Position numbers and translations under genes: made by a program. Below are positions 2,101 through 33,859 of a DNA stretch of 64,000 nucleotides, piece by piece. The stretch is taken from positions 32,001 to 96,000 of the forward strand of contig CAVPOM010000018.1 of the NCBI GenBank assembly GCA_963707025.1, in the 5' to 3' direction. Each line of letters starts with the position of its first letter. Positions within the stretch are counted from its first letter, which is position 1. This stretch comes from an uncultured Verrucomicrobiae bacterium (GTDB lineage: Bacteria; Verrucomicrobiota; Verrucomicrobiia; Limisphaerales; Palsa-1400). Under the pieces are notes generated by a model that saw only the letters and a program-made list of their open reading frames with translations, searched no databases and had not been told where the DNA came from.

Positions 2101-3108
2101 TAGAGCGTTTCCATAAATGATATAGCTTGACTGGGGCGAGAGGGCTGGCAGGCTTGAGCCATGCGAGCGATACCCGTGTCTGCGCGCGAGCGCATCCTGC
2201 AACTCTATGAACAAGGCAAAAGCACCCGCGAGATCGCGGACTTTTTCGGCTTTTGCGTGGCGGCGGTGCGCCGGGTCCGGCAGCAGTTCCAAGAGCGCGG
2301 CACGCTCCAGCCGCAAACCCATTTGTGCGGGCGCAAAACGCTGCTGAACGCCGGACGCCAGGCTCGCCTGCAAAAGCTGGTGGCGGCCCAGCCCGACGCG
2401 ACGTTGGCCGAGTTGGGGGCGCGTCTGGACCGCCCTTTCGGGACCTCCACTGTGGATTTGTGGCTGCGCAAACTGGGGTTGAGCTATAAAAAAAACGCTC
2501 TGCGCCGCCGAGCAGAACCGTCCGGACGTGGCCGAAAAGCGGGCCCATTGGCATGAGCGTCTGGCAAGTGACCCACCTGCCCGACTGGTCTTCGTGGATG
2601 AAAGCGGGGCCAACACCAAGATGACCCGTTTTTGCGGGCGGTCACCCGTGGGCCGAAGACTGGCGGCCCACGTCCCGCAGGGACATTATCAGACCACCAC
2701 CCTGGTCTGCGCCATTCGTCTGGCCGGGCCTGCGGCCCCCTGCCTCTTTGAGGGGGCCATGGACGGGGAAATGTTTTTGGCCTGGATCCAGCAGGGGCTG
2801 GTGGTGGAGTTGCGCAAGGGTGACTTGGTCATCATGGACAACTTGGCCACGCATAAGGTGACCGGAGTCCGCCAAGCCATCGAAGAGGCCGGGGCAACGC
2901 TGCTGTATCTGCCGCCCTATTCGCCAGACTTTAATCCCATCGAAAATATGTGGAGCAAGGTCAAACAAATTATGCGAGGTCTCGCGCCGCGAACCGCCAA
3001 GGAACTGCTCCAAGCGGCGAAGATTGCCTTTGAAGCCATCTCCACCGCCGATTGCCGGGGCTTCTTTTTAAACGCCCGCTACGCTACATGATTTATGGAA
3101 ATGCTCTA
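2101..3108 (+). mobile_element. IS630-family insertion sequence
   Basis: Terminal inverted repeats TAGAGCGTTTCCATAAAT (2101-2118) and ATTTATGGAAATGCTCTA (3091-3108), 1 mismatch, with TA at both ends; encloses a split transposase. Confidence 0.95.
2161..3091 (+). CDS. IS630 transposase in two ORFs (HTH 2161..2556; DDE to 3091) joined at an A8 run (2488-2495)
   Basis: HTH N-terminal part; DDE motifs FVDESG, IMDNLATH, LPPYSPDFNPIE; fused reading LSYKK-TLCAAEQNRPDV. Confidence 0.9.
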
Positions 3109-4632: not shown

Positions 4633-4713
4633 CTTAATCTTAATCTTAATCCTAATCTTAATCTCTTTGGAGGATTTGGCGCATTAAGATTAAGATTAAG
4701 ATTAGGATTAGGA
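4633..4713. repeat. Inverted hexamer array: (CTTAAT/CCTAAT)5, ~18-nt spacer, (ATTAAG/ATTAGG)5
   Basis: Read directly; lies just after the M48 stop codon. Confidence 0.95.
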
Positions 4714-10536: not shown

Positions 10537-11190
10537 ATGTCCGATATCTTTCCAAAGTGGACCAACCGGTTGCCGCGCAACATTATTATTGGGGCGGTGC
10601 TGGTGGGTTCCGGGGTGCTGGCCGGGGTGACCTATTATTTCACGCCGAAGTACACGCGGGTGGGTTATGAACCGATCCAGCCGGTGGCCTTTGCCCACAG
10701 CGTGCATGTGGAGCAATTGGGGCTGGATTGCCGCTATTGCCATAATACGGTGGAGAAATCCTGGTATTCCAACATCCCGGCCACGTCCACCTGCATGAAC
10801 TGCCATGTCCAGGTGTTGAAGGACGATGCCCGGCTGGCGCTGGTGCGGGAAAGCGCGGCCTCGGGCCAGCCGATTCCCTGGGTGCAAATCCACAAGATGC
10901 CCGATTTTGTCTATTTCAACCATTCCGTCCATGTCAACCGGGGTGTCAGTTGCGTGGAATGCCACGGGCAGATCAACCAGATGGACGAAGTGTATCATGC
11001 CAAACCTTTGAGCATGTCCTATTGCCTGGACTGCCATCGCGACCCGACGATGCGGGTTCGTCCGCTGGCCGAGATCACGCATTTGGATTGGAAACCCGAG
11101 TCCGCGGCCAGGCAAAGGGAGGATGGCGAAAAGATGATGCATGATTGGCGGATTCAATCCTTGCAAACCTGCTCGACTTGTCACCGATGA
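10537..11190 (+). CDS. actA: Alternative complex III pentaheme cytochrome c
   Basis: N-terminal TM; five CxxCH (CRYCH, CMNCH, CVECH, CLDCH, CSTCH); QPVAFAH, PDFVYFNHSVH. Confidence 0.95.
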   Translation: MSDIFPKWTNRLPRNIIIGAVLVGSGVLAGVTYYFTPKYTRVGYEPIQPVAFAHSVHVEQLGLDCRYCHNTVEKSWYSNIPATSTCMNCHVQVLKDDARLALVRESAASGQPIPWVQIHKMPDFVYFNHSVHVNRGVSCVECHGQINQMDEVYHAKPLSMSYCLDCHRDPTMRVRPLAEITHLDWKPESAARQREDGEKMMHDWRIQSLQTCSTCHR

Positions 11191-14100
11191 AAAACCCACC
11201 CACACCCGCACCGGCAGGCCCGGCCTATTGGCGCAGTTTGGACGAACTGGCGGACACGCCGCAGTTCCGCCAATGGGTGGAAAAGGAGTTTCCGGCCGGG
11301 GCGAGCGAATTGTTTGATCCGGTGACGCGGCGCAATTTCGTCAAGATCATGTCGGCGTCCTTCCTCCTGGCGGGCCTCGGGGCGACGGGCTGCCGCCGGC
11401 CGGTGGAGAACATTTATCCGTTCGCCAAGATGCCGGAGAATTATGCGCATGGCCTGCCGCAGTTTTTTGCCACGGCCATGCCGTCCCGCCGCGGGGCGGT
11501 GCCGCTGGTGGTGAAATCCAGCGACGGGCGCCCGACCAAAGTGGAGGGCAATCCCGACCACCCGGACAGCAACGGCGGCACGGACCCGTTTGCGCAGGCG
11601 TCGGTGTTGAGTCTTTATGATCCCGACCGGGCCCAACGCTACGCCAGGAACGGGAGCCTGAGCACCAAGGCGGCGGCGTTGGATGCCTTGGCCGCGCTGG
11701 CCGGGAAGTTTGGGAACGGGGACGGGGTGGCGTTTCTCATGGAGCAAAGCAGCTCGCCTTCCCGCGCGCGGCTGCAACGGATGGTCAGCGAAAAATATCC
11801 GAAGGCGCGCTGGTTTGTTTATGAGGCGGTGGATCTGGATGCGGCGCGCATTGCGGCCTCGCTGGCTTACGGCATCCCGGTGGCGCCTTATTACAACCTG
11901 GAAAAGGCGGAAAAAATTCTGGCGCTGGATTGTGATTTTATCGGCACCGAGGAAAATGCGACGGTCAACATCCGGCGCTTCGCCCAGGGCCGGCATGTCG
12001 CGGGCAAGGACGACCCAATGAGCCGGCTCTATGCGGTGGAGAGCTTGTTCACCTTGACAGGGATGAACGCGGACCATCGTTTGCGCGTCGCGCCCAGCCT
12101 GATGGTCGCGGTGGTGGCGCGGATGGCGCTCAATATCCTGCCTTCCGGCGATTGGGACGCCAAGCTGAAGGAATTGTCCGCCCCGGCGCAGGGCTTTGAT
12201 GATTGGATCGTGCCTTGCGCGAAGGATTTGAAGGCAAGCGGCGGGAAAGGTTTGGTGATGGGCGGTTATCGTTTGCCGCCAGCGGCCCATTTGCTGGTGC
12301 TGGCGATGAACGAGGCTCTTGGTGCGGTGGCGGATCACACGATTGAATTTCATGAAGTTCCCGAGGCAACCGAAGAGGACATTAGCATCCTCGTGAAGGC
12401 GCTGGGCGCTGTCCAATTCCAGACTTTGATCATGTTGGGCGGCAATCTGGCTTACAATGCTCCGGCGGACTTGAACTGGTCGCAGGCGTATCCAGGGGGG
12501 AAACTCCAAAGGACAATCGTGCGGCTCGGTTATTATGAAGATGAAACGTCGTGCCCCCCTCCTCCAACGATGACGAGTCAATGGGATTTGCCGATGGCGC
12601 ATTTTCTGGAGTCGTGGGGCGACGCGCGCACGGCCAACGGAACTTTGGTCCCGATTCAGCCGCTGATCGAGCCGCTGTTTGACGGGCTGACGGAATTGGA
12701 AGTGCTGGCGATTCTGGCGGGCGCGGAAAAGACCAAGCCTTACGAAATCGTGCGCGAAACATTTCGCCTCCTTGGCGGCCCCGGCGAGAATGATTGGCGG
12801 AAGTTTTTGCACGACGGTTTCCTCGCAGGCAGCGCGGCGGTGCCGGCCACTGTACAGTTCAACGCCAAGCTGCTCGCGCCGGTGTTGGATTTGTTGAAGC
12901 CCGCGGCCGCGCCCGGACCGGGCAACTTGGACGTCGTTTTCCATCGCGATTCCAAGATGGACGACGGACGGCATAATAATAACGGCTGGTTGCAGGAATT
13001 GCCGGACCCGATCACCAAGCTGACCTGGGACAACGCGATTTTGGTAAGCCCCAAGACGGCCCATGAGCTGAAGCTCGCGCCCGATGAGCAGAAGCGCGAC
13101 CAGACGCAGCGATTTTACGACCAGGTGGTGGAAATTCAATTGGGCGAGCGGAGAGTGCGCGGCACGATCTGGGTCCAGCCCGGCATGGCGGATTATACCG
13201 TGGGGCTGGCGCTGGGATATGGTCGCGTGAAGACGGGGCGGATCGGGCGCGGTTGCGGCTACAACGCGTATAAAGTGCGGACGACCGACGCCATGCATTA
13301 CGGGTCGAACGCCAAGTTGACGAAAGTGGGCACGGCGTATCAATTGTCCACCACGCAGAGCCATTGGAGCATGGAAGGGCGCGCGCCGGTGCGGGAAGCC
13401 AATCTGGAGGATTTTCGCAAGCAGCCGGATTTCGCGGCGAAAATGGACTTGGAAAAGCCGCCCACCATAGCGCCGATGTATCCCAACCCATTCGACACCA
13501 CCAAGGCCAAAGGATTGCATCAGTGGGGCATGGCCATAGATTTGAGCAAATGCGTGGGATGCTCGGCCTGCATGGTGGCGTGCCAGAGCGAGAACAACGT
13601 CCCCATTGTGGGCAAGGAAATGGTGGGCAAGAGCCGCGAGATGCACTGGATACGGATTGACCGTTATTATTCCGGTGTGGGCAAGAATCCCGAGGATGAT
13701 CCGCAGGCGGTGGTCCAGCCGATGCTCTGCCAGCATTGCGAAGCCGCCCCGTGCGAGAATGTTTGCCCGGTCAATGCCACCTCGCATGATGACGAAGGGC
13801 TGAACGTGATGGTGTATAACCGCTGCGTCGGCACGCGTTATTGCTCCAACAACTGCCCCTACAAAGTGCGCCGCTTCAATTTCTTTGATTACAACCGCCG
13901 CCCGCTGGACAAACTTTACGACAGCCCGCTCGATCCGCTCAACCGGAAGGACGGCAAATGGGAGTTCCTGCGATGGTGGGACAATCCGGACCGGGGCAAC
14001 CTGCCGGAAGACCAGTGGCAACTGGTGCGCATGGTCAAGAACCCCGACGTGTCGGTGCGGATGCGCGGGGTGATGGAGAAATGCACCTTCTGCGTGCAAC

Positions 14101-14474
14101 GGCTGGAGCAGGCCAAGATCGCCGCGAAGGTCAAGGCGCGCGCTTCGGACCACATCCGCTTGTCGGAGAAGGAAGGGACCATTCCCAGGACGGCGTGCCA
14201 GCAGGCCTGTCCGGCGGAGGCGATTGCCTTTGGCGACATTTTGGACAAGGAAAGCACCGTGAGCAAATGGAAGGACAATCCGCGCAATTACACGGTGCTG
14301 GACGTTCTCCACACCAAACCGCGCCTGACTTACCTGGCCAAGGTGCGCAATCCCAATCCCGAGATGCCCGATTACAAGCAGCACCCCGCGCCTTACAGCT
14401 ACGACGACTATTCCAAAACCATGGGCCGGCCCGCCTTGGAGGAGGGTGAGGCGACTGAGAAAGGAGCCCGGTAA
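11187..14474 (+). CDS. actB: ACIII molybdopterin-oxidoreductase-like / Fe-S subunit
   Basis: YWRSLDEL, Tat TRRNFVK followed by [18 protein letters not shown], four Fe-S cysteine clusters ([47 protein letters not shown]); ATGA overlap with actA. Confidence 0.95.
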
Positions 14475-15964
14475 TGGCGGACGCCACTCCAGCCCCGATG
14501 TTGACGCAGGACGCGCCGCTGGTGGTGCAGGCGCCGCCCGTGGAGTTGGAACGCGAGCCGCTCGTGGCCAACGGCCACGGCATCGGCTGGCTGTCCGACA
14601 CCATAGCGGGAGTGGCCGAAGGCAAGCCCAAGTTCTGGTGGTGGATTTGTTTCACCATCAGCGCGACCATGATGACGGTGTGCTTTCTGTGCATACTATA
14701 TCTGATGTCCACCGGGGTGGGGGTCTGGGGTGTGGCGCACCCGGCCATGTGGGGCTATGCCATCGTCAATTTCGTGTGGTGGATCGGCATCGGCCATGCC
14801 GGAACCCTGATCTCGGCGATTTTGTTTCTGCTGCGGCAGAAATGGAGGACTTCCATCAACCGCGCGGCCGAAGCGATGACCATCTTCGCCGTGATGTGCG
14901 CCGGCATCTTTCCTCTCATCCATATTGGGCGAATCTGGCTGGGCTACTGGCTGTTCCCCATCCCCAATGCCAACGGCATCTGGCCGCAATTCCGCTCGCC
15001 CCTGATGTGGGACGTTTTCGCCGTCTCCACCTACTTCACCGTCTCGGTGCTGTTCTGGTACATGGGATTGATACCCGATCTGGCCGTGATGCGGGACCGG
15101 GCCACGACGAAAAGCCGGAAGTTCGGCTACGGCCTCTTCGCCCTGGGCTGGACCGGCTCCAACCGGCACTGGAGCAATTATGAGAAGGCCTACCTCATTC
15201 TGGCGGGCCTGTCCACGCCGCTGGTGCTCTCGGTCCATTCCATCGTCTCGCTGGATTTTTCGGTCTCGCAAATCCCCGGCTGGCACACCACCATTTTCCC
15301 CCCCTACTTTGTGGCGGGGGCCGTTTACTCCGGTTTTGGGATGGTGCTGACGCTGCTGGTGCCGCTGCGGCGGATGCTGAAACTGGAAGACATCATCACG
15401 GTGCGGCATGTGGAGTTGATGTGCAAAGTGACCCTGCTCACCGGCTCCATCGTGGGCTATGCCTATGTGATGGAGTTTTTCATCGCCTGGTACGGGGGCA
15501 ATCCTTATGAGAAATACCTCTTTCTCCATGAGCGCGCGGCGGACCCGTTCATCATTGCCCCGCTCTACGGAATCGAGCCGGCGCCCTACTGGTGGGCCTG
15601 GTGGATGATGATTATCTGCAACGTGCTGGTGCCGCAGCTATTCTGGTTCAAGAAGGTGCGGACCACCATGATCCTGGTTTTCATCCTGTCCATTTTAGTC
15701 AACGTCGGCATGTGGTTCGAACGATTTGTCATCATCATCGTTTCGTTGACCCGTGAATTCATTCCGGCCAACTGGGGATATTACCGTCCGTCGTGGGTGG
15801 ATATTTTGCAATTTTTGGGAACGTTTGGCTTGTTCTTTACGTTCTTCCTGTTGTTCCTGCGCTACGTCCCGTTGATCGCCATTGCGGAGGTCAAGGGCGT
15901 GACGCCGCAAGCCGACCCGCACCATCCGCTGGGCGGGGCGAAAAGCGGAGGGCACCACCCATGA
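14474..15964 (+). CDS. actC: ACIII NrfD-family membrane subunit
   Basis: [47 protein letters not shown]. Confidence 0.95.
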
Positions 15965-16494
15965 GCGGACGGCCTTACGCGATCCTGGCGGAATTTGAAA
16001 GCCCGGCGGCCATCCTGCAGGCGGCGGACAAGGTGCGCGGGGAGGGATACCGCAATTGGGACGTTTTCACCCCGTTCCCGATCCACGGCATGGACCGGGC
16101 GATGGGGATCAAGAACTCCAAAGTGGGCTGGTTTTCTTTCATTGGCGGCGTGACGGGGTACGCCACGGGGATGTTGATGATCTGGTTTATGAACACGGTG
16201 GATTATCCGATCGTCATCGGCGGCAAGCCGATGTTCAGCCCGTTTTCCGCTTTTCCGCCGTCCTACGAATTGACGATTTTGTTCGGGGCCTTCGGGGCGC
16301 TGCTGGGGATGCTGTTCCTCAACCGGCTGCCCCGGCTGCATCATCCCCTGCTCAAGCACGGGCGGTTCAAGCTGGCCAGCCACGACCGTTTTTACGTGGT
16401 GATCGAAACCAACGATCCCAAATACGCCGAGCCGGCGACCCGGCAAATGCTGGAGTCGCTGGGGAGCAAGCACGTTGAATTCGTCGAGGAATAA
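15961..16494 (+). CDS. actD: ACIII subunit D (DUF3341)
   Basis: [32 protein letters not shown] overlap. Confidence 0.92.
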
Positions 16495-17162
16495 TGCGCT
16501 ACTTTTACCTCATTTTTTTTCTGACCTGCGTGACGGTGATCGGCCTGGCCGGTTTTCGCGGCAGCAAGTCGCGCCAGCCGCCCATTGAGCTGTTTAACGA
16601 CATGGTGCGCCAAAACAAGGTGCGCCCGCAGACGCCGAGCGATTTCTTCGCCGACGGCCGCAGTTCGCGGGCGCGGCCCGAAGGCACGGTGGAGCGCAGC
16701 CTGCCTTATGAACTCAACGGCCAATTGGTGCTGGTCAACGGCAAACCGGTTTATCCCTACGAAGAGGCCCCCATGAACACCGGGCGGATGACGGGCACGA
16801 CCAATTTCATCGAAACCGGCCCGCTGGCCATCACGCGGGAATTGCTGGACCGGGGCCAGGAGCGTTATCAGATTTATTGCCTGCCGTGCCACGGCCCGGC
16901 GGGAGACGGCAAGGGGATCACGGGCAAATACGGCATGGTGAGCATGGCCGATTTTCACGCCCAGCGCCTGGTGGAGATGAAGGACGGTGAGATTTTTAAT
17001 ACCATGACGGTCGGGAAATTGCCGCTCATGCCGGCCTACGGGGCGCTGCTTGGGGTGGAAGACCGCTGGGCGATCATCTCCTACATCCGCGCCTTGCAAC
17101 GCAGCCAGTTGGCGACGGTGGAAGACGTGCCCGAGGCGAAACGGGGAGAATTTAAGAAATGA
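16494..17162 (+). CDS. actE: ACIII monoheme cytochrome c
   Basis: DMVRQNK, FFADG, CLPCHG, MPAY, DRWAIISYIRALQ. Confidence 0.92.
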   Translation: MRYFYLIFFLTCVTVIGLAGFRGSKSRQPPIELFNDMVRQNKVRPQTPSDFFADGRSSRARPEGTVERSLPYELNGQLVLVNGKPVYPYEEAPMNTGRMTGTTNFIETGPLAITRELLDRGQERYQIYCLPCHGPAGDGKGITGKYGMVSMADFHAQRLVEMKDGEIFNTMTVGKLPLMPAYGALLGVEDRWAIISYIRALQRSQLATVEDVPEAKRGEFKK

Positions 17163-17222: not shown

Positions 17223-18494
17223 ATGAACAAGGACACTCCATCCTCATCGGTTGCGCCGCTGGATTTGGCCAAATGGCGGCATGTGCCCGTGATCTTGATG
17301 GCGGCGGGCGGGATCGGGGCGGGGCTGGGCGCGGCGGCCTGCGGGAGCCGGCAGTTCGCCTTTTCCTGGCTGGTGGCCTTCATGTTTTACTTGAGCTTGT
17401 GCCTGGGCGCCTGGTTTCTGGTGATGGTGCATCATTTGTTTGACGCAAACTGGTCGGTGCCGACGCGGCGGTTTTGCGAACACCTGGCCTGTCTGGCGGG
17501 CTGGCCGATGCTGCTGCTGTTTGTCCCCATTGCCGTCCTGGCGCCGCGCCTCTATGAATGGATGAACGAGCTGCGGCATCCGGATCATGCCTTGGCGGCC
17601 AAATATCCGTTGTTCACCATGAAGGGTTTTTATATCGTGGCGGCGGTTTGCTTCGGCGTCTGGTGGCTCTTTACCAACCGTTTGCGGCACTGGTCGCTGC
17701 AGCAGGACAAGACGGGCGCGGCCCATTGCATGCGCCGCATGCGGTTTTATTCCGCCCTGGGCATCATCCTTTTTGCGGGGACGCTCACCCTGGCCGCGAT
17801 CGTGTGGATGAAGGGGCTGATGTATGAATGGGCCTCGACCATGTACGGGGTCTGGTATTTCGCGGCGAGCGTCTGGGTGGCGCTGGCCACAGTGTATGTC
17901 ATTACGCTGATCTTGCAGCGCACGACGGCGTTGCGGGATGTGGTGACGGAAAAGACGTATTACATGATTGGCTCGCTCTTGTTCGCCTTTACCGTGTTCT
18001 GGGCCTACATCAGCTTTGGGCAGTACTTTATCGTCTGGAACGCGAACATGCCGGAAGAGACCTTCTGGTACGTGCTGCGCGAAAAGGGGACGTGGTGGTT
18101 CACGGGGGCCATCATCATCATCTTCGGCCATTTCTTCCTGCCCTTTCTGGCGCTGCTGCGGATAGATGTGAAACTGAAGCTGGCGGCCATGCTGCCGTTG
18201 TGCGCCTGGGCCTGGCTCATGCACCTGGTGGACGTGGAGTTCCAAGTCATGCCCAGCCTGCATGAGAACGGGGTATTCACTTTCACCTTTCCCTTCCTGA
18301 CGGCCAGCCTGCTGGTGGACTTGGCCTGCCTGATGTTCATCGGCGGATTCCTCGCCAAACTTTTTCTGTGGTCGCTCAACCGGCATCCCGTCTATCCCTT
18401 GCAGGACCCGCGCATGGCGGAAGCTCTGGACGTTTATGTGCCGCCGGCCAGCGCCGCCGCCATTATTCCCGGTCCCGGGGTAAAAGAACTATAA
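17223..18494 (+). CDS. actF: ACIII membrane subunit F
   Basis: Polytopic; ANWSVPTRR, WASTMYG, WAYISFGQYFIVWNANMPEETFWY, DPRMAE. Confidence 0.9.
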   Translation: MNKDTPSSSVAPLDLAKWRHVPVILMAAGGIGAGLGAAACGSRQFAFSWLVAFMFYLSLCLGAWFLVMVHHLFDANWSVPTRRFCEHLACLAGWPMLLLFVPIAVLAPRLYEWMNELRHPDHALAAKYPLFTMKGFYIVAAVCFGVWWLFTNRLRHWSLQQDKTGAAHCMRRMRFYSALGIILFAGTLTLAAIVWMKGLMYEWASTMYGVWYFAASVWVALATVYVITLILQRTTALRDVVTEKTYYMIGSLLFAFTVFWAYISFGQYFIVWNANMPEETFWYVLREKGTWWFTGAIIIIFGHFFLPFLALLRIDVKLKLAAMLPLCAWAWLMHLVDVEFQVMPSLHENGVFTFTFPFLTASLLVDLACLMFIGGFLAKLFLWSLNRHPVYPLQDPRMAEALDVYVPPASAAAIIPGPGVKEL

Positions 18495-18508: not shown

Positions 18509-18877
18509 ATGAGCACTGAATCCATCCGCGGAAAATGCGGCCAGGGCCTGACCGTGCTGGGGGTGGCGGGAGCGTTTTTAGTGATGGCCTGGCTGGTCTG
18601 GCTGATGCGCGCCTACACGCACCCGCCCGCCCTGGCTGAGGCCCGCGCCGTGGAGCGGCTGAAGATCAAGGCCGAGTTCGACGCGGCCAACGCCCCGCTG
18701 CTCAACGGGTATGACTGGGCCGACAAGGAGAAGGGATTTGTGCGCATCCCGGTGGAGCGGGCCAAGGAATTGATCTTGCAGGAATGGCAGAATCCGGCGG
18801 CGGGCCGCTCCAATCTGACCAACCGGGCGGCCAGGGAATTCGCCCCCGCCGCCGTGGCGAAAAACCCGTACGAGTAG
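18509..18877 (+). CDS. ActG-like small single-TM subunit
   Basis: One TM then YDWADKEKGFVRIPVERAKEL, resembling the ActG motif; located after actF. Confidence 0.65.
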   Translation: MSTESIRGKCGQGLTVLGVAGAFLVMAWLVWLMRAYTHPPALAEARAVERLKIKAEFDAANAPLLNGYDWADKEKGFVRIPVERAKELILQEWQNPAAGRSNLTNRAAREFAPAAVAKNPYE

Positions 18878-18938: not shown

Positions 18939-19115
18939 CTCTTAATCTTAATCCTAATCTTAATCTTAATCTCATTCGTGCAATCGGTAATCAGAATTGG
19001 CTTTGATCAAGCCCACGAGCAGCGAAACGATGATATACTTGCAGCTTTTCGTGGTCGAAGACTCGATTCACTCGGATTAGGACGATTAAGATTAAGATTA
19101 TGATTAAGATTAAGA
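18939..19115. repeat. Inverted hexamer array with ~100-bp spacer (arms 18939-18972 and 19075-19115)
   Basis: Read directly, between the actG-like and ccoN-like genes. Confidence 0.9.
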
Positions 19116-19131
19116 CCAGGAGCAGATACCC

Positions 19132-20604
19132 ATGAGCGTGACTGAGGCACCAGCGGCAACGGCGGCAACGGCGGCTGGCCCGCAGGTTTCGAGGACCCAA
19201 CTCGAAACTTCCGGGGCGGTGCCGCTCCTGGGCCTGTTCGCCGGCGCGGCGGTCTGGCTCCTGCTGGGTTTGCTGCTGGCGCTGCTCTGTTCGCTCAAAC
19301 TGCATGCCGCCGGCTTGCTGGCCTCCGGGCCGATGTTCACTTATGGGCGCGTCCACGCCGCGGCGGACACGGCGCTGCTCTATGGCTTTGGCGTTCCGGC
19401 CGCGCTGGGAACCGGGCTGTGGCTGCTCTGCCGCCTGGGGCGGACGCGATTGGCGGCGCCGGCGGTGGCCGCCGTGGGAGCGCTGGCCTGGAATGCGGCG
19501 GTGGCCGCGGGTCTCTGGGCCATCCTGCGCGGCGGCGGGACCGGCTACCAAGGGTTTGAGATGCCGGGGGCCATCGCGCCGGTTCTGCTGTTGTCGTACC
19601 TGCTGATCGGAATCTGCGGGGTCGTCACCTTTGGGCAGCGGGAGGCGGGGCCGCTTTATCCGTCGCAATGGTTCGTGCTCGGGGCGCTTTTTTGGTTTGG
19701 GTGGATTTTTTCCACGGCGGGGCTGCTGCTGCTGGGCGCGCCGGTGCGCGGCGTTCTCCAGGCCTTGGTCAACTGGTGGTATGAGCATAATCTGGGCACG
19801 GTGTTTTTTGGGTTTGCCGGGCTGGCTTCGATTTTTTATTTCATCCCCAAACTGACCGGGCGGCCGCTGCACAGTTATTATCAGGCGGCGCTGGCGTTCT
19901 GGATGCTGGCGCTGGCGGGCAGTTGGGGCGGAATTCCCGGCGGCGCGCCGCTGCCGGGCTGGCTGGTCAGCGTGTCCGTGGCGGGGACGGTGCTGACGGT
20001 CATCCCCATCGCGGCGGTGGCGATGAATTTGTATTTGACGGTGAGAGGGGAGGCGCTGGCGCGGGAGGCCTGCCCCAGCCTTCGTTTCACCTGCGCGGGC
20101 CTGATTTTTTGGGTGATCGCCAGCGCGCAGGAGGTGGCGGGGGCGCTGCCGTCGGTCGGGGCGCTGACCGATTTCACCTGGTTCACCACGGCGCAACGGG
20201 ACCTGTTCCGCTACGGTTTCGTGGGGATGACGATGTTCGGGGCGATTTATTACATCGTGCCGCGGCTGGCCGATGCCAAGTCCGCCGCGCCGGACGGACT
20301 GTGGAAAGGGTGGTTAAGCCAATGGCATTTCCGGCTGATGCTGGCGGGGGTGGTGATTGGATACATGGCCTTGCTGGTGGCGGGCGTCTGGGAGGGAGTG
20401 GAGTTCCAAAGCCCCGCCCATTCGTTCGCGGCGGTGATGAGGGGCACGATGATGGCGCTGCGCCTGAGCACGCTGGGTCCCCTGTTGCTCACGCTGGGGA
20501 TGATCGCCTTTCTGCTGAATTTTGCGCTGCTGCTGAAAGGTTGCTGCGCCCGCTGCCGCCGGGAAAGATGGGGCGGCCGGGAGATGCGAAAGGGGGACGC
20601 ATGA
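19132..20604 (+). CDS. CcoN (cbb3 subunit I)-fold polytopic membrane protein lacking most metal ligands
   Basis: CcoN landmarks TYGR, LYPSQW, NWWYEHN, YFIPKLTGRPLHSY, FGAIYYIVPRL, WHF are retained; see findings for the missing His residues. Confidence 0.85.
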   Translation: MSVTEAPAATAATAAGPQVSRTQLETSGAVPLLGLFAGAAVWLLLGLLLALLCSLKLHAAGLLASGPMFTYGRVHAAADTALLYGFGVPAALGTGLWLLCRLGRTRLAAPAVAAVGALAWNAAVAAGLWAILRGGGTGYQGFEMPGAIAPVLLLSYLLIGICGVVTFGQREAGPLYPSQWFVLGALFWFGWIFSTAGLLLLGAPVRGVLQALVNWWYEHNLGTVFFGFAGLASIFYFIPKLTGRPLHSYYQAALAFWMLALAGSWGGIPGGAPLPGWLVSVSVAGTVLTVIPIAAVAMNLYLTVRGEALAREACPSLRFTCAGLIFWVIASAQEVAGALPSVGALTDFTWFTTAQRDLFRYGFVGMTMFGAIYYIVPRLADAKSAAPDGLWKGWLSQWHFRLMLAGVVIGYMALLVAGVWEGVEFQSPAHSFAAVMRGTMMALRLSTLGPLLLTLGMIAFLLNFALLLKGCCARCRRERWGGREMRKGDA

Positions 20605-21374
20605 ACAACGGGCCGATGCTTTATTTGGGATTGTTTGCCGCGATGGCGATTTCGTGGGTAACCTTTGTACTCGGCCCGCAGGTGCAAATGGCCGGCCTGC
20701 TGCCCGCCCGGACGGTGGGGTCGCTGCCGGTCAGTTATCCGAACACCCCGCCCGGCCTGGCGCGGCAGGGGGCCGAGGTGTACCGGGCCTGCGGGTGCGT
20801 CTATTGCCATACCCAGCAGGTCCGCCCCGAGGAGCTGGGCTCGGACTTGGCCCACGGCTGGGGCATCCGGCGGAGCGTGGCGCATGACTACATTTATGAT
20901 CGTCCGGTCCTGCTGGGCACGCAGCGGGTCGGGCCGGACCTGGCCAATGCGGGGTTGCGCATGGATGCCATGGCCGTGCTGGTGCGGCTGTGGGATGCCC
21001 GCACCATCAATCATCTGGACGCCGCCCATTCCATTATGCCGTCCTACAAGTATTTGTTTGAAGTGCGCAAAATCGGGCGGATGCCATCGCCCGACGCCCT
21101 GGTGGTTGCGCCGCAATTTGCGGCGGCGCCAGGTTATGAGATTGTGCCGCGGCCGGCGGCGCGCGCCCTGGCGGCGTATGTGGCGAATATGCGCCAGGAG
21201 CCGTATCTTTTTGAAGCACCGCCGCCGCCGGGTGCGATCAACACCAACACGCCGGCGGGAGGAACCAACGCGCCGGCCGGCGGGACCAATGCGCCGGCGG
21301 GAGGCACCAATGCACCCGCGGCGGGCAGCGGAGCGCCCGGCCTGCCTGGCGGCACGAATGCGGCCAAACCGTAA
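20601..21374 (+). CDS. CcoO (cbb3 subunit II)-like monoheme cytochrome c with a low-complexity tail
   Basis: CVYCHTQQVRP, LGTQRVGPDLAN, SIMPSY; ATGA overlap; C-terminal (NAPAGGT) repeats. Confidence 0.85.
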   Translation: MNNGPMLYLGLFAAMAISWVTFVLGPQVQMAGLLPARTVGSLPVSYPNTPPGLARQGAEVYRACGCVYCHTQQVRPEELGSDLAHGWGIRRSVAHDYIYDRPVLLGTQRVGPDLANAGLRMDAMAVLVRLWDARTINHLDAAHSIMPSYKYLFEVRKIGRMPSPDALVVAPQFAAAPGYEIVPRPAARALAAYVANMRQEPYLFEAPPPPGAINTNTPAGGTNAPAGGTNAPAGGTNAPAAGSGAPGLPGGTNAAKP

Positions 21375-21390
21375 TCCGCCATCCGCAACC

Positions 21391-21438
21391 ATTAAGATTG
21401 AGAATGGAGATTAAGATTAGGATTAAGATTAAGATTAG
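21391..21438. repeat. Single-arm hexamer array (GATTAA/GATTAG)
   Basis: attaagattgagaatggagattaagattaggattaagattaagattag. Confidence 0.9.
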
Positions 21439-21456
21439 AATGCAATCCGTCACGCC

Positions 21457-22083
21457 ATGAACCAGAATCCTCCAGAGCCAGCCGCCGCTGTGGAACGGGA
21501 TGAGCCTGCCGTCGGGCCGTCGGCTGTTCCCATCTGGCTGATTCTTCTGCTGGGCTTGCTGGTTTACTGGGGATTGAATTATGTCAATGAGCACGGCGGC
21601 TGGTTCAATGCGCAAGTTTATGAGCCGTTCACCACCTATGCGGAAGTGGCGCAATGCCAGCCGCACAATCCGGAAGGTGACTATCTGGCGTTGGGCGAGT
21701 CGGTGTTTAAAGAATCCTGCATTCTGTGCCATCAAGCCAATGGCGCGGGCAAGGAAGGCCAGTTCCCGCCGCTGGCCGGGTCGGACTGGCTGAATGCACC
21801 GGGGCCAAACCGGATCGTCCGCATTGTTTTGAACGGCCTGACCGGGCCCATCCGGGTTGAAGGAGGTCCCAACGGCCCGGTCGGCCTCAATGCCACCATG
21901 GCGCCGCTGGGAGGCACTTACACCGATGAGAAAGTGGGGGCGGCCTTGACCTACGTGCGCCAGCAGTGGGGCAACAAAGCATCGAAGATCACGCCCGATC
22001 AGGTCAGAACCATCCGGGAAGCGATCAAAGCGCATCCCGCGCCGTTCACGCCGGATGATTTGTTGAAGATTCCGGTGCAATAA
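21457..22083 (+). CDS. Membrane-anchored monoheme cytochrome c
   Basis: TM, CILCHQANGAG, FPPLAGSDW, MAPL, LTYVRQQWGN. Confidence 0.9.
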   Translation: MNQNPPEPAAAVERDEPAVGPSAVPIWLILLLGLLVYWGLNYVNEHGGWFNAQVYEPFTTYAEVAQCQPHNPEGDYLALGESVFKESCILCHQANGAGKEGQFPPLAGSDWLNAPGPNRIVRIVLNGLTGPIRVEGGPNGPVGLNATMAPLGGTYTDEKVGAALTYVRQQWGNKASKITPDQVRTIREAIKAHPAPFTPDDLLKIPVQ

Positions 22084-22147
22084 GAATAGTGAATTGAGAA
22101 TTGAGAATAGTGAAGTTTCTGAATTCTCAATTCTACATTCTCAATTC
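22084..22147. terminator. Inverted heptamer array (GAATTGA/GAATAGT vs TCAATTC); probable bidirectional terminator
   Basis: Fills the gap between the convergent cytochrome c and M20 stop codons. Confidence 0.6.
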
Positions 22148-23514
22148 ATCTTTCCCAGCCGGCGCCAAAGGAGGGCGCTCATGCGCGAGCCTTTTTCGTA
22201 GCAATCCAGGTTGAATTTTTCGTTGGGAGAATGGGCGTTGTCATCGGGCAGGGCCAAACCCAGGAGCAAGGAATCGGCGCGCAGAACTTTTCTGAACTGG
22301 GTGACGATGGGAATGGAACCGCCTTCGCGGATGAGAATGGGTTCGCAGCCAAAGGCTTCCCTGAGGGTGGCCAAGCCGGCCTGGGCCAGCGCGCCGGAGG
22401 GGGAAACCAGATACGGCTCGGCGCCGTGTCCCGCCTCGGCTTGCAAACGCACGGTGGGCGGACAGATTTTTTTGAGCTGCTTGAGAATCGCCTTGCGGAT
22501 GCGCTCCGGGTTTTGCTCGGGCACCAGGCGAAAGGTCAGCTTGGCCCTGGCCCAGGCCGGAATGATCGTCTTGCTCCCCTCCCCCTGATAACCGCTGGTC
22601 AGGCCGTTGATCTCGATGGTCGGACGGGAACTGCGTTGCTCGATGAAATTATAGCCGCGCTCGCCAAACAGCCGCGGCACGCCCAGGGACTTCCGATAGG
22701 CCGCTTCCGTCATGGGAAAGCGGGCCATTTGTTTTCTCTCGTAGGCGGAGAGCGGGGCAACGTCGTCGTAAAAACCGGGAATGGCGACGCGCCCGTTTTT
22801 GTCGCGCAACCGGGCGAGCAACTGGCTCAGGGCCAGGGCGGGATTGTCCACCGTGCCGCCGTAGATGCCGGAATGCAAATCGCGGGCCGGCCCGTGGAGG
22901 GTGATTTCCACGGCGCAGATGCCGCGCAAGGCATAAGTCAGGGCGGGATGATCCAGGCCGGGCATGCCGGTGTCGGAAATGACGACGGCCCGGCAGTGCA
23001 GTTCGTCGTGGTTGGCCAGCAGGAAGCTGTCCAGGCTTTTGCTGCCCACTTCCTCCTCCCCTTCGATGATGAAGGTGAGGTCGCAGGGGAGCGAAGTTTT
23101 TGTGGCCAGATAAGCCTCCACCGCGTTGAGGTGGGCGAGGTTTTGCCCCTTGTTATCGCTGGCGCCCCGGGCGAAGAGGGAACGGCCTTCGAGGCGCGGC
23201 TCGAAGGGAGGGCTTTTCCAAAGGTCAAACGGCTCGGCCGGTTGCACATCGTAATGGCCGTAAATGAGAAACGACGGCTTGGTGGAATGAGGCGAGCGCG
23301 GCGTTTTGGCGACGACGACGGGATGGCCGGCGGTGGGACAAAGGCGGCTTTCCAGGCCGATGTCTTTGCAGTGCGCCACCAGCCACGCGGCGCAGGCGGC
23401 CAGATCGCCGCGATGGGCCGGTTGGGCGGAGACGCTGGCAAAGCGGACGTACTGACAAAGCTGGTCCAGGAAATGCGCCTTCTTTTGCTCCAGATAATTC
23501 AAAACGGCTTGCAT
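22141..23514 (-). CDS. M20 family dipeptidase/deacylase
   Basis: YGHYDVQP, RGASDNKG, EGEEEVGS, DLHSG, GGSIP, HSPNE. Confidence 0.92.
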   Translation of the reverse strand: MQAVLNYLEQKKAHFLDQLCQYVRFASVSAQPAHRGDLAACAAWLVAHCKDIGLESRLCPTAGHPVVVAKTPRSPHSTKPSFLIYGHYDVQPAEPFDLWKSPPFEPRLEGRSLFARGASDNKGQNLAHLNAVEAYLATKTSLPCDLTFIIEGEEEVGSKSLDSFLLANHDELHCRAVVISDTGMPGLDHPALTYALRGICAVEITLHGPARDLHSGIYGGTVDNPALALSQLLARLRDKNGRVAIPGFYDDVAPLSAYERKQMARFPMTEAAYRKSLGVPRLFGERGYNFIEQRSSRPTIEINGLTSGYQGEGSKTIIPAWARAKLTFRLVPEQNPERIRKAILKQLKKICPPTVRLQAEAGHGAEPYLVSPSGALAQAGLATLREAFGCEPILIREGGSIPIVTQFRKVLRADSLLLGLALPDDNAHSPNEKFNLDCYEKGSRMSALLWRRLGKMN

Positions 23515-31982: not shown

Positions 31983-32684
31983 TCAAGGTTTCTCCCGGAG
32001 CTGAACGCTTTGCCCAAGGTTTTCCAAACGCGTCAGCCATTGGCCGAAGTGAGGGCATTTCTCACGAAGAACAGGAAGGCCGATCTCTCCGGCGGCCCGA
32101 GCGCCCACAAGCACTTTGGCGCGATGGTAGCCGGGCAGATGTTTTTCCAGCCGTGCGGATGGATGCGTGCTCGATCCATCGTCCACCTCTTCGGGTGGAG
32201 TGGAACCAATTTCAGCCTTCAAGTTGGCGATGCCTCGGTCGCGACCGGGGAGGCGGCGGGCCACCGTGATCAGGTCGCAAAAGAGAAGAGCTTCAAACTC
32301 ATGCAGGGTGAAGAACGGCAGGAGGCGGGGGGAGTTGAAATGCGTTTGGACGGTGGCGGCGACGGTGGCGGCGCGGTCTGCCGCTTGGGCAAGTTTGCGA
32401 GCTTCGCCGACTCCTGGAAAATGCGGGTCAAGTTTGTACCAATCAATCATCGTAGAGAAACGGTCTGATATGCCGGCGAACTGCTTGAGCAGGCGGCCTA
32501 CATTGTAACGGAAGCGATCCCACGACAACGCGCCGCCTGCTGCGCCCAGGCTTCGGTTCGTGGGCAGCATGAATGGGTTAACGGAGACGTGGTACTGGGC
32601 GAGGTGAGGTTTCAGGGTGTCGCGGGCGAAGGCCAGTTCCGTTTCCCCCTCCACGATCAGGTGCAGTTTCACCCAGGCCGTCAC
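31983..32684 (-). CDS. DUF4276-like (TOPRIM-type) protein
   Basis: IVEGETE, TMIDWY, LHEFEALLF, PEEVDD..HPSARL, CPHFGQWL; GTGA overlap with the ATPase stop. Confidence 0.8.
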   Translation of the reverse strand: MTAWVKLHLIVEGETELAFARDTLKPHLAQYHVSVNPFMLPTNRSLGAAGGALSWDRFRYNVGRLLKQFAGISDRFSTMIDWYKLDPHFPGVGEARKLAQAADRAATVAATVQTHFNSPRLLPFFTLHEFEALLFCDLITVARRLPGRDRGIANLKAEIGSTPPEEVDDGSSTHPSARLEKHLPGYHRAKVLVGARAAGEIGLPVLREKCPHFGQWLTRLENLGQSVQLREKP

Positions 32685-33859
32685 GGCCGCCCTCCGAAAA
32701 GGTTGCTCTCCCACATTTGGCTTAGGGAATAATCTTGCAACCAGTCCGCCAGGCTTTCCCGATCGAGCCGTTTAAGATTCGTTGCGCCTTCTTCCAAGTC
32801 GGCGACAATCACATCTGCCGGCTCCATTTGATCCACCAAACCGGCGGATTGGGTGGCCACAATGATCTGTGTAAAATTGGCAGCATCCTGAAGAAGGGAC
32901 GCCAGAATCTTGATGGCGTATGGATGCAACCCCAGTTCCGGCTCATCAATGGCAATCAACGGCGGCAACCAGTCGTGAGGCTGGAGGAGCAGCGTCGCAA
33001 GCGCAATGAACCGGAGTGTGCCGTCCGAGATTTGGTGGGGTCCGAATTCGTATTCCGCTGAACCAGCCGCTCTCCATCGGAGCATCACATAAGTCCCGCC
33101 ATTATCAGGCTCCAAAACGAAGTCTTTGAAGAGAGGAAAAACTAAATGGACAGTCTCAACCACACGCTTATAGCACTCCGGTTGCTTTTCACGCAAAAGA
33201 TGGAGGTGAGCGGCCAAATTGCTGCCATCGTCGTAGAGATATGGCGGACCACTAAGATCACTGCGGCTGCGCATGCGAGACTGATCCGATGTGTCGTGAA
33301 AATGATAGAGTCGAACGCGACTGAGCGTGCTTCTCCAGAATTTGGCCTCCTCATTCTCCGCCAATTTGGGGGAGAGGAGGGCAGATTCGAGGTGGCCGAG
33401 ATCCAAGATTCCAACGCCCTGGGACGAGTATGGGGTGGTCACCATTGAAATGCACTTCAGTGGCTGGAAACTGCTCCGCTGTGAAAACTAGGGTTTTGGG
33501 GGGCGACTCGGTTTCTGGAATTCGACTCCTTTAAAGCCAAAGTGTCGGGTGCAGCATCCACAAGTGCCATCCGGTAGTTGTAACTTAACACCCGAATCAG
33601 AGGTCATATCCAGTTCCGCGGCAAGGAATTCAGTCACCTTGGCTCCTAGATACAGCAAAGAATCTCTGCCGCCAATGCGGCCAATAAACTCTTGAAGCGC
33701 TCCGATCATCTCGAAATGCAACAGTTTGAACAGCGAAAGGAAATTGGACTTCCCAGACCCGTTGGCCCCGATGAGGACATTCAGGTTTTCCAGCCTCAGT
33801 TCTCGGCATTGCCTGATGGATTTGTAGCCCTCTAGCGAGACTTTGGTCAGCTTTAACAT
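32681..33859 (-). pseudogene. AAA_21/ABC-type ATPase, disrupted around 33450-33590
   Basis: Walker A GANGSGKSN, ISDGTLRF, Walker B IDEPELGLHP, ATQS. The middle has frameshifts and a TAG that a single indel does not repair. Confidence 0.75.

Follow-up and report, generated by a model that had tools for sequence, protein, structure and literature searches.

A CcoN homologue without heme or copper ligands in alternative complex III operons of Verrucomicrobiae and its probable role as a cytochrome scaffold

Known CcoN subunits and ACIII-linked oxidases

CcoN, subunit I of the cbb3 (C-family) heme-copper oxidases, carries heme and CuB ligands, a cross-linking Tyr in helix VII and the residues of a K-channel analogue; solved chains come from P. 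stutzeri (3MK7, 9G6B) and R. capsulatus (6XKW), and its gene is coupled to ccoO through an ATGA overlap. We take the low-spin heme b ligands to be H60 and H347, placed by alignment; the high-spin heme b3 ligand is presumably H345 and the cross-linking Tyr Y251, and the K-channel analogue is assumed to comprise T215, Y223, S240 and Y317. The CuB ligands are H207, H257 and H258 (PMC3578206).

Alternative complex III (ACIII) has been described in ACIII-aa3 of Flavobacterium johnsoniae and ACIII-caa3 of Rhodothermus marinus; in the accessible text of these sources a pentaheme wire and ActE lead to an A-type oxidase by way of one more heme c, carried on a domain of either ActA or oxidase subunit II (PMC8552683, PMC5928083). 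A C-type oxidase linked to ACIII is reported from Verrucomicrobia (Refojo 2010 via PMC8498564; PMC6688271), and the accessible text of PMC8498564 and PMC6688271 describes the Methylacidiphilum gene, that of strain SolV included, as a working cbb3 oxidase.

The locus and its genes

The window, which is the whole 64,000-nt stretch of DNA that was analysed, contains an actA-F set upstream of, and in the same direction as, the gene for a CcoN homologue named CcoN' (N'); actF is recognised by position only.

10537..11190, + strand: actA, pentaheme cytochrome c without the sixth mobile heme domain (PF14522, QrcA-like match)
11187..14474, + strand: actB, Fe-S/molybdopterin-fold subunit (QrcB/QrcC-like and Fer4 matches)
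14474..15964, + strand: actC, NrfD-type membrane subunit (PF03916)
15961..16494, + strand: actD (PF11821, E 2e-64)
16494..17162, + strand: actE, monoheme cytochrome c (PF13442/PF00034)
17223..18494, + strand: actF-like membrane subunit (no Pfam match; labelled from position and conserved synteny)
18509..18877, + strand: small single-helix protein, ActG-like (position conserved)
19132..20604, + strand: CcoN', cofactor-less homologue of cbb3 oxidase subunit I (PF00115, TIGR00780, alignment, fold model)
20601..21374, + strand: CcoO-like membrane-anchored monoheme cytochrome c (PF02433; C66, C69, H70, M146)
21457..22083, + strand: membrane-anchored monoheme cytochrome c, likely the exit carrier (PF00034)
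22076..22148, no strand: inverted repeat between convergent genes (32-nt arms, 78% complementary)

The small protein is a putative ActG; an Atlas search with it returned only unnamed Verrucomicrobiota clusters and yielded no name. The N' ORF encodes 490 aa without internal stops, and its TGA overlaps the ATG of the CcoO-like gene (ATGA, 20601-20604). The CcoO-like protein has an intact heme motif (CVYCH) and an intact axial Met146, placed by alignment, and its tail is an Ala/Pro/Gly repeat; where cbb3 operons encode the diheme CcoP, one monoheme cytochrome c is found here instead. Beyond the inverted repeat lies a convergent M20 peptidase gene, and the repeat probably marks the operon end as a terminator. 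The original prediction, made from the letters alone, had described a full-length uninterrupted ORF coupled to a CcoO-like gene with CxxCH and a Met ligand, then a monoheme cytochrome c and the operon end; all of this was borne out.

Fold and ligand state of CcoN'

N' is a CcoN fold without the ligands of heme b, heme b3 or CuB. It scores 128 bits against PF00115 and 115 bits against TIGR00780, the latter far below the cut-off of 583, and aligns with solved CcoN chains across ~430 residues (E 7e-22). The fold model (pLDDT 90.7) superimposes on solved CcoN with TM 0.85-0.86 and rmsd 2.1-2.4 Å (TM 0.86 to 3mk7_A); N' shares with C-family subunit I the 12-helix heme-copper fold, sequence homology and the partner CcoO gene with its heme c motif.

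YGRVHAAADT (from 19342) aligns on FGRLRPLHTN, so that A78 replaces a low-spin heme His, and FTTAQRD (from 20182) aligns on WTIGHVH with Q355 and D357 in place of both heme His; the low-spin pair therefore reads A78 and D357, and the high-spin position Q355. WWYEHN (19774) aligns on WWYGHN and retains H219, equivalent to H207, as the only CuB His; GSWGGIP--GG (from 19918), with a two-residue deletion, replaces YIWAGPHH, by which the other two CuB His and the cross-link Tyr (G263 in N') are lost. The K-channel positions T215, Y223, S240 and Y317 are occupied by G227, F235, A252 and W327, and in sum N' lacks five of the six His ligands, together with the cross-link Tyr and the residues of the proton channel. 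The ligand-stripped fold first read from motifs was confirmed by this alignment, its motif positions being right within a few codons. Nitric oxide reductases (cNOR NorB and variants) have the same fold (TM 0.74 to 3o0r_B), together with a CcoO/NorC-like partner. In these reductases the heme ligands are retained, as is a metal site with three ligands; N', however, has neither set, and all three heme His are absent.

Orthologues across Verrucomicrobiae

The 142 orthologous loci split in two, with 44 carrying six His and the Tyr, 98 carrying zero to three His and none between; the intact count becomes 41 when three separate N-O copies are excluded. Intact orthologues occupy the same operon position as N', and the C-type oxidase reported from Verrucomicrobia is this same gene in the same place behind actA-F; it is complete by sequence in the first group and has lost its ligands in the second, contrary to its description as a working oxidase in the accessible text of those sources. 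Relatives keeping all six His, which would have spoken for decay of this copy, do exist as distant orthologues, but none is found in the window's order, where 35/35 counted loci are His-less; the full-length loci of a second order are likewise His-less (21/21). As judged from these sequences, the intact distant orthologues show the ancestral state, not decay of the window copy.

The cross-link Tyr is found in 0/98 His-less and 44/44 intact loci, while the His-less loci retain the low-spin heme His pair in three cases, the high-spin heme His in four, and the CuB His H207, H257 and H258 in 26, 5 and 13. The CuB His that was thought to be kept in the window is indeed present as H219, but its retention in so few His-less orthologues means that it carries no weight as a kept ligand. 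The K-channel residues T215, S240, Y223 and Y317 are retained in 12, 7, 44 and 24 of 78 His-less copies versus 27/27 intact ones. Replacements at the ligand sites vary by lineage with no new shared residue, and nearly all columns conserved in His-less copies are Trp/Gly/Pro/Arg scaffold columns that are conserved in intact copies too. Family f25 retains exactly the low-spin heme His pair (3/3 loci), and a single heme b may thus still be bound in some lineages.

All 98 His-less copies are full length, in a locus sample that favoured full-length matches; a truncated form (L075, 346 aa) was also seen, and L173 is a very diverged copy. Alignment A2 offered no conserved stretch to use as a locus search query. 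Genomes G374 and G399 each have two copies, a His-less one in the ACIII operon and an intact, separate N-O copy.

The CcoO CxxCH is present in 142/142 loci, all His-less ones among them, and the axial Met of the downstream cytochrome c in 94/94 full-length His-less loci. CcoO has another residue in place of its axial Met in 16/98 His-less loci (8 with Cys, 3 with His, 5 with others; 1 unresolved) versus 0/44 intact, and in some lineages its heme may therefore be unable to pass electrons on. Natural fusions of His-less N' to CcoO occur in P0253/P0270 (two records), P0140, P0175 and P0260. In genus g31 all three, N', CcoO and cytochrome c, are joined in one polypeptide behind ActF (hhalign probability 95, E 3e-8; ActF and ActC controls 0.3); this triple fusion is highly diverged, yet both CxxCH motifs are retained.

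Selection and number of losses

Compared with its genus mates, N' has dN/dS of 0.25-0.37 (bootstrap upper bounds <=0.50); in the wider comparison His-less copies range from 0.07 to 0.37 and intact copies from 0.02 to 0.08, every pair being far under 1. The median amino-acid rate relative to ActF is 1.13 for 16 His-less pairs versus 0.76 for 10 intact pairs. By these comparisons N' is maintained by selection rather than decaying; the idea of a maintained non-catalytic protein is upheld by the dN/dS values and the full length of the His-less copies, and His loss extends to 98/142 loci.

The trees imply 5 to 12 separate ligand losses. FastTree on N' alone gives just two to three state changes and clusters the intact copies together; a mixture-model tree of 22/142 rows gives five changes and returns His-less rows beside their intact family mates, and the FastTree grouping is for this reason read as long-branch attraction. 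A tandem pair at L004, considered as an intact and a dead CcoN, proved to be an unrelated B-type-like oxidase cluster.

Proposed role and alternatives

N' is probably a cofactor-less membrane scaffold that would hold CcoO and the downstream cytochrome c on ACIII as an electron exit arm. A scaffold for two cytochromes, among the roles first proposed, is supported as the most likely reading by the loss of ligands and K-channel residues, purifying selection on a fold that models as intact, the constant gene order, partner fusions and the transcript level in Methylacidiphilum fumariolicum SolV. In SolV, N' (TPM 36/47) is transcribed at the level of actC (46/56) and actF (40/53) and not at that of the cox genes (coxA 264/317); coxA transcription is ~6x the module level, and most A-type oxidase of this strain is therefore not in a 1:1 complex with the module. 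By its synteny, its fusions with partners and its transcript level, N' is a candidate physical subunit of ACIII.

The ancestral operon would have encoded ACIII and a working cbb3 oxidase (N, O, cytochrome c), often with an A-type oxidase, in one row; the catalytic centre may have been lost repeatedly where another acceptor existed, the protein body being retained. A search of this genome for a separate oxidase gave no intact ccoN (88% complete) and an A-type oxidase on contig C12; an A-type oxidase is present in 96/98 His-less genomes, within the examined stretch around the locus for 36. ActA has five CxxCH in 106/106 full-length family members and CoxB has CxxCH in 0/40, which leaves a gap for the module to fill. 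Electrons may pass from menaquinol through ActB/ActA and ActE to the anchored cytochrome c and on to CuA of the A-type oxidase, with CcoO as a dock or relay on the way to the anchored cytochrome. The module would thus supply what the sixth ActA heme provides in Flavobacterium and the caa3 heme c in Rhodothermus; unlike in those supercomplexes, as far as the accessible text describes them, the extra hemes here belong to a module that descends from a defunct cbb3 oxidase, and neither extra heme domain is present.

The A-type oxidase cannot be the sole acceptor, since g31 retains the fused module while a heme-copper oxidase was found in 0/6 of its genomes checked. Cytochrome c peroxidase was considered as the g31 acceptor and occurs in 5/5 genomes with the module; it is not specific to the module, however, because 3/5 genomes without a module match carry it, and NrfA gave only weak partial matches. 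In G024 (90% complete) N' is present with no other heme-copper oxidase match. Being anchored in the membrane by itself, the cytochrome c might do without a scaffold; nor is the arm indispensable, as G079 (99% complete) has ACIII genes, with an A-type oxidase encoded elsewhere, but no N', CcoO, cytochrome c or coxA at the locus.

A wider account, quite possible although we would not yet favour it, is that about ten separate conversions turned a cbb3 oxidase into a pseudo-oxidase serving as a dedicated ACIII cytochrome c output arm, a third ACIII wiring in Verrucomicrobiae; these would pass through a one-heme intermediate as in f25 and end as the single g31 polypeptide feeding another acceptor, and the Methylacidiphilum 'cbb3 oxidase' would be this arm.

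N' and CcoO may instead be an entrenched structural subunit off the electron path. They would descend from an obligate ACIII-cbb3 complex and serve solely to assemble or stabilise ACIII, or a supercomplex of ACIII with an oxidase. The N' rate, close to that of cofactor-free ActF, fits such a role, as do the lost CcoO axial Met, the act-level transcripts and the persistence of the diverged g31 fusion without a heme-copper oxidase; this is nevertheless unlikely, given that the CcoO CxxCH and the cytochrome c Met are retained in His-less loci, that both CxxCH motifs survive even in g31 and that G079 keeps its act genes without the module. It is improbable in turn that the emptied fold gained a new activity, whether as a transporter or channel, as a site for quinone or heme, as a metal chaperone or in redox/O2 sensing. 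The retained 12-helix fold, its cofactor pockets empty, the f25 His pair and R73 (75/78 His-less copies) would suit such an activity, but no new residue is shared, nearly all conserved columns are those of the intact scaffold, and repeated independent origin favours loss of function over gain. The repurposed channel first suggested is not supported, because the K-channel residues decay together with the ligands.

If anything slightly less probable is that N' works with a catalytic subunit from another locus, another of the earlier suggestions, with CcoO and cytochrome c donated to, or N' pairing with, a separate cbb3 oxidase. An intact CcoNO fusion of ~730 aa does exist elsewhere in many relatives, 3/5 genus mates included; however, this fusion already contains a CcoO, a catalytic subunit is altogether absent from g31, each of four g47 genomes gave a single match and no second, intact CcoN, and the partnership is unlikely here because no intact CcoN was found in this genome (88% complete). 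A decaying relic, to which the weaker selection than on intact copies, L075, L173 and the sampling of full-length matches might point, is already largely refuted and very improbable, as neutral decay would not leave full-length His-less copies across the window's order and in a second one, with dN/dS far under 1.

Annotation and Methylacidiphilum

The literature searched held no description of this His-less CcoN family, which appears to be a heme-copper superfamily pseudoenzyme, spread across the class and as yet undescribed, with many origins from an enzyme alive in sister lineages; the step from catalyst to scaffold is thus directly comparable. The proposed scaffold also offers a testable answer to how a five-heme ACIII reaches an oxidase without a heme c of its own. 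In databases these proteins carry the name 'cytochrome c oxidase cbb3-type subunit 1', and the gene is listed in reviews as a high-affinity oxidase of verrucomicrobial methanotrophs; with its ligands lost and a scaffold role likely, ccoN' should not be so counted, and a ligand check is needed wherever the gene underlies inferences of microaerobic capacity in Verrucomicrobiota from soil, freshwater or geothermal sites. If the wider account is true, the high O2 affinity of Methylacidiphilum must be due to enzymes of the ba3 or aa3 type. The SolV 'CcoN' (MFUM_v2_0384) is His-less, and both named Methylacidiphilum loci (L124, L125) are without ligands. M. fumariolicum SolV is in culture and expresses ccoN'.

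The ACIII Operon and the Ligand Sites of N'

On the + strand, the window carries actA-F of alternative complex III (ACIII) and a small ActG-like gene, followed by three further ORFs:

19132-20604, + strand: N', the His-less CcoN homologue; matches PF00115 and TIGR00780, the latter far under its cut-off
20601-21374, + strand: CcoO-like ORF, after N' in the operon
21457-22083, + strand: cytochrome c ORF, the last of the three after the ActG-like gene

Alignment of N' to solved CcoN chains confirms the ligand loss that had been read from its motifs, with one CuB His kept and a shortened loop. The low-spin heme His site is Ala, the first CuB site retains His, the cross-link Tyr site is Gly, the two remaining CuB sites lack His in a loop shorter by two residues, and the two helix X heme sites are Gln and Asp. 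The CcoN numbers H60, Y251, H345, and H347 and those of the K-channel residues were assigned to N' columns via the alignment; the numbering H207/H257/H258 follows the available text of PMC3578206. The AlphaFold model of N' (pLDDT 90.7, pTM 0.90) superposes on 3mk7_A with a TM of 0.86. Five features defining a cbb3 oxidase were tested, and N' displays none of them; the protein resembles the membrane core of that enzyme in working, yet falls outside its membership, and is almost certainly no oxidase.

The sole other heme-copper subunit I found in the genome is an intact A-type enzyme encoded with cox genes on contig C12, so the search for a separate ccoN or coxA suggested in the original prediction yielded the coxA type; no intact CcoN was found in this genome, which is 88% complete. 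A bd oxidase is also present.

Ligand State Across Relatives

Named homologues of N' belong to the Verrucomicrobiota, and the cross-link Tyr and both loop His are absent in 120/120 of the closest homologues listed; judged from these alignments, the ligand loss is old and common to relatives. The sampled loci surround full-length matches in the order to which the window belongs and in four further groups of its class, and are a part of all matches picked for spread over families. The recurring gene order is act genes, ActG-like gene, N, O, and cytochrome c, with 10 loci on stretches too short, or truncated, for act genes to show; L135, L151, and L153 are N-O pairs apart from the operon. In the count of 142 loci, six His and the Tyr occur in 44, 0-3 His (the His-less state) in 98, and 4 or 5 His in none. 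Outside the 142 stand two duplicates, one partial, two named loci, a 346-aa truncated copy, one canonical copy with a frameshift, and 11 outgroup enzymes. Four His occur in 1/150 cluster representatives. The six His sites are retained in 21, 26, 5, 13, 4, and 12 of the His-less loci and the Tyr in 0/98; K-channel residues are lost alongside the ligands (78 His-less and 27 intact loci compared). Family f25 (L047, L131, L132) keeps the low-spin heme His pair alone in 3/3 loci and is a possible one-heme intermediate; L137, with H60 and H345 kept and Tyr at the H347 site, is another possible intermediate.

In family f56 (L064-L067) a heptaheme cytochrome c lies upstream of intact CcoN-CcoO. An extra cytochrome c domain seems to form part of the gene between actF and N' at some loci, among them L059, L062, and several from the order to which G163 belongs. 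In L004 (G029:C352) a B-type-like oxidase subunit I adjoins a second, diverged subunit-I-like ORF with a partial His set; this cluster also has SCO and a CuA subunit.

Number of Losses

Both ligand states are found within each of seven families. The ActCDEF tree (110 rows) requires at least 12 state changes and the CcoO plus cytochrome c tree (132 rows) at least 10, compared to at least 23 and 28, respectively, with shuffled labels. FastTree on N alone gives only 2-3 changes, which counts against repeated origin; a mixture-model tree of 22 N rows puts the number at 5 and again places family members as sisters. The ligand set is read as lost 5 to 12 times; these are taken as losses, not gains, because regain of seven residues is implausible. 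G374 and G399 each have two copies, the operon-context copy being His-less and the separate N-O copy intact.

Selection on N'

Compared with four genus mates, the window's N' has Nei-Gojobori dN/dS values of 0.30, 0.37, 0.26, and 0.25, none with a bootstrap upper bound over 0.50; His-less pairs (n=14) range from 0.07 to 0.37, and intact pairs, where computable, from 0.02 to 0.08. All pairs lie far below 1, the mark of purifying selection, and core coverage is at least 94% in 98/98 His-less copies, from a sampling that favoured full-length matches; both agree with the original view of a maintained rather than decaying gene. N' is real and maintained. Constraint on His-less N' is relaxed, not neutral: its rate relative to ActF is about 1.5 times that of intact copies (median 1.13 vs 0.76). 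Conserved columns of His-less N' are mostly Trp, Gly, Pro, and Arg, common to intact copies; no new common residue was found in the cofactor pockets among the His-less alignment columns.

Partners and Fusions

The CcoO CxxCH motif is present in 142/142 loci. By regular expression and inspection, the CcoO axial Met is found in 44/44 intact loci; of the 98 His-less loci, 81 keep it, 16 have another residue in its place, and 1 is unresolved. The cytochrome c Met is kept in 94/94 full-length His-less loci.

Clean His-less N'-CcoO fusions occur in four representative proteins, one with a second record, single records being possible assembly slips. In genus g31, possibly the gut genus Akkermansia, the ACIII operon is diverged and ends in a triple fusion: ActF is followed by a single ORF of ~770 aa in which a membrane part is joined to a CcoO domain and a cytochrome c domain (L177 in G103, L178 in G175, L179 in G442; shorter in L181/L186 of G440). 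The membrane part matches N' with probability 95 over 246 columns (ActF and ActC controls, 0.3). The triple-fusion query matched 9/31 g31 genomes, five of these in the cytochrome part only; PF00115 had no match in 6/6 genomes checked among those with a query match. In other g31 genomes (L180, L182-L185) the match covers the cytochrome c part alone and falls in a short ORF that has CxxCH twice.

Electron Acceptor and Proposed Role

From sequence, N' lacks metal sites; its fold, its gene, and the hemes of its partners are kept, and fusions occur. N' would tether CcoO and the anchored cytochrome c to ACIII, and this cytochrome would take electrons from ActE and hand them on to the cell's own cytochrome c-dependent acceptor, in this genome putatively the A-type oxidase; this relay is considered the probable role, with fair confidence. 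The main rival, in which N' is a purely structural, entrenched subunit, is held to be rather unlikely.

The available text of PMC8552683 and PMC5928083 describes a sixth ActA heme bridging ACIII and oxidase in F. johnsoniae and a caa3 heme c in R. marinus; in contrast, ActA of the sampled loci has five hemes (106/106 full-length copies) and CoxB lacks a heme motif in 40/40. By a hand tally in which kin are not independent, an A-type oxidase is present in 96/98 His-less genomes (the two misses being 67% and 90% complete) and in 38/44 intact genomes; cox genes lie within the fetched stretch of 36 His-less and 10 intact loci. Between the ActG-like gene and coxC of L174 (G079:C1:238300-245000), the whole set of N', CcoO, cytochrome c, and coxA is absent, which may be a deletion or an assembly artefact; act genes are present in G079, as is an A-type oxidase. 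Two cases speak against an obligate bridge from ACIII to the A-type oxidase: g31, in which the six genomes checked have no such oxidase, and G079, which lacks the module at this locus.

Methylacidiphilum and Published Labels

In Methylacidiphilum sp. Yel (L124) and M. fumariolicum SolV (L125), His-less N' is followed by cox genes. The SolV protein reads identical to MFUM_v2_0384, annotated CcoN as the sole such name among 11 'cytochrome c oxidase' matches in supplement file 4 of PMC10205796. Its mean TPM in two reactors is 36 and 47, similar to actC (46, 56) and actF (40, 53) and well under coxA (264, 317). The ACIII-adjacent gene is presented as a cbb3 oxidase in the available text of PMC8498564 and PMC6688271. 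Full-text literature searches yielded no description of the ligand loss; subscription work (Refojo 2010, 2013; Ducluzeau 2008; Sun 2018) and Table S10 of PMC6688271 may bear on it. Table 3 of PMC13274419 gives three genes directly after Verruconatronum actABCDEF as a caa3 oxidase; these may be an N-O-cytochrome c module.

Other Features of the Window

A 21-bp tandem repeat at the 3' end of CcoO (21243-21326) encodes an Ala/Pro/Gly/Thr/Asn tail. AT-rich hexamer runs, (GATTAA)n, often in inverted pairs, separate operon genes at 18939-19122 and 21391-21439 and recur near 4635, 6217, 7650, 17163, 23614, and 34492, and the genome has roughly 119 sites of this kind; in relatives the corresponding operon genes overlap or lie only a few bases apart, and the runs resemble an intergenic element of REP or MITE type belonging to this lineage. 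The window also encodes a DDE transposase fragment (2528-3091, +), an AAA_21 ATPase with a DUF4276 partner (31983-33445, -), and a bacterial alpha-2-macroglobulin (56417-61846, -).
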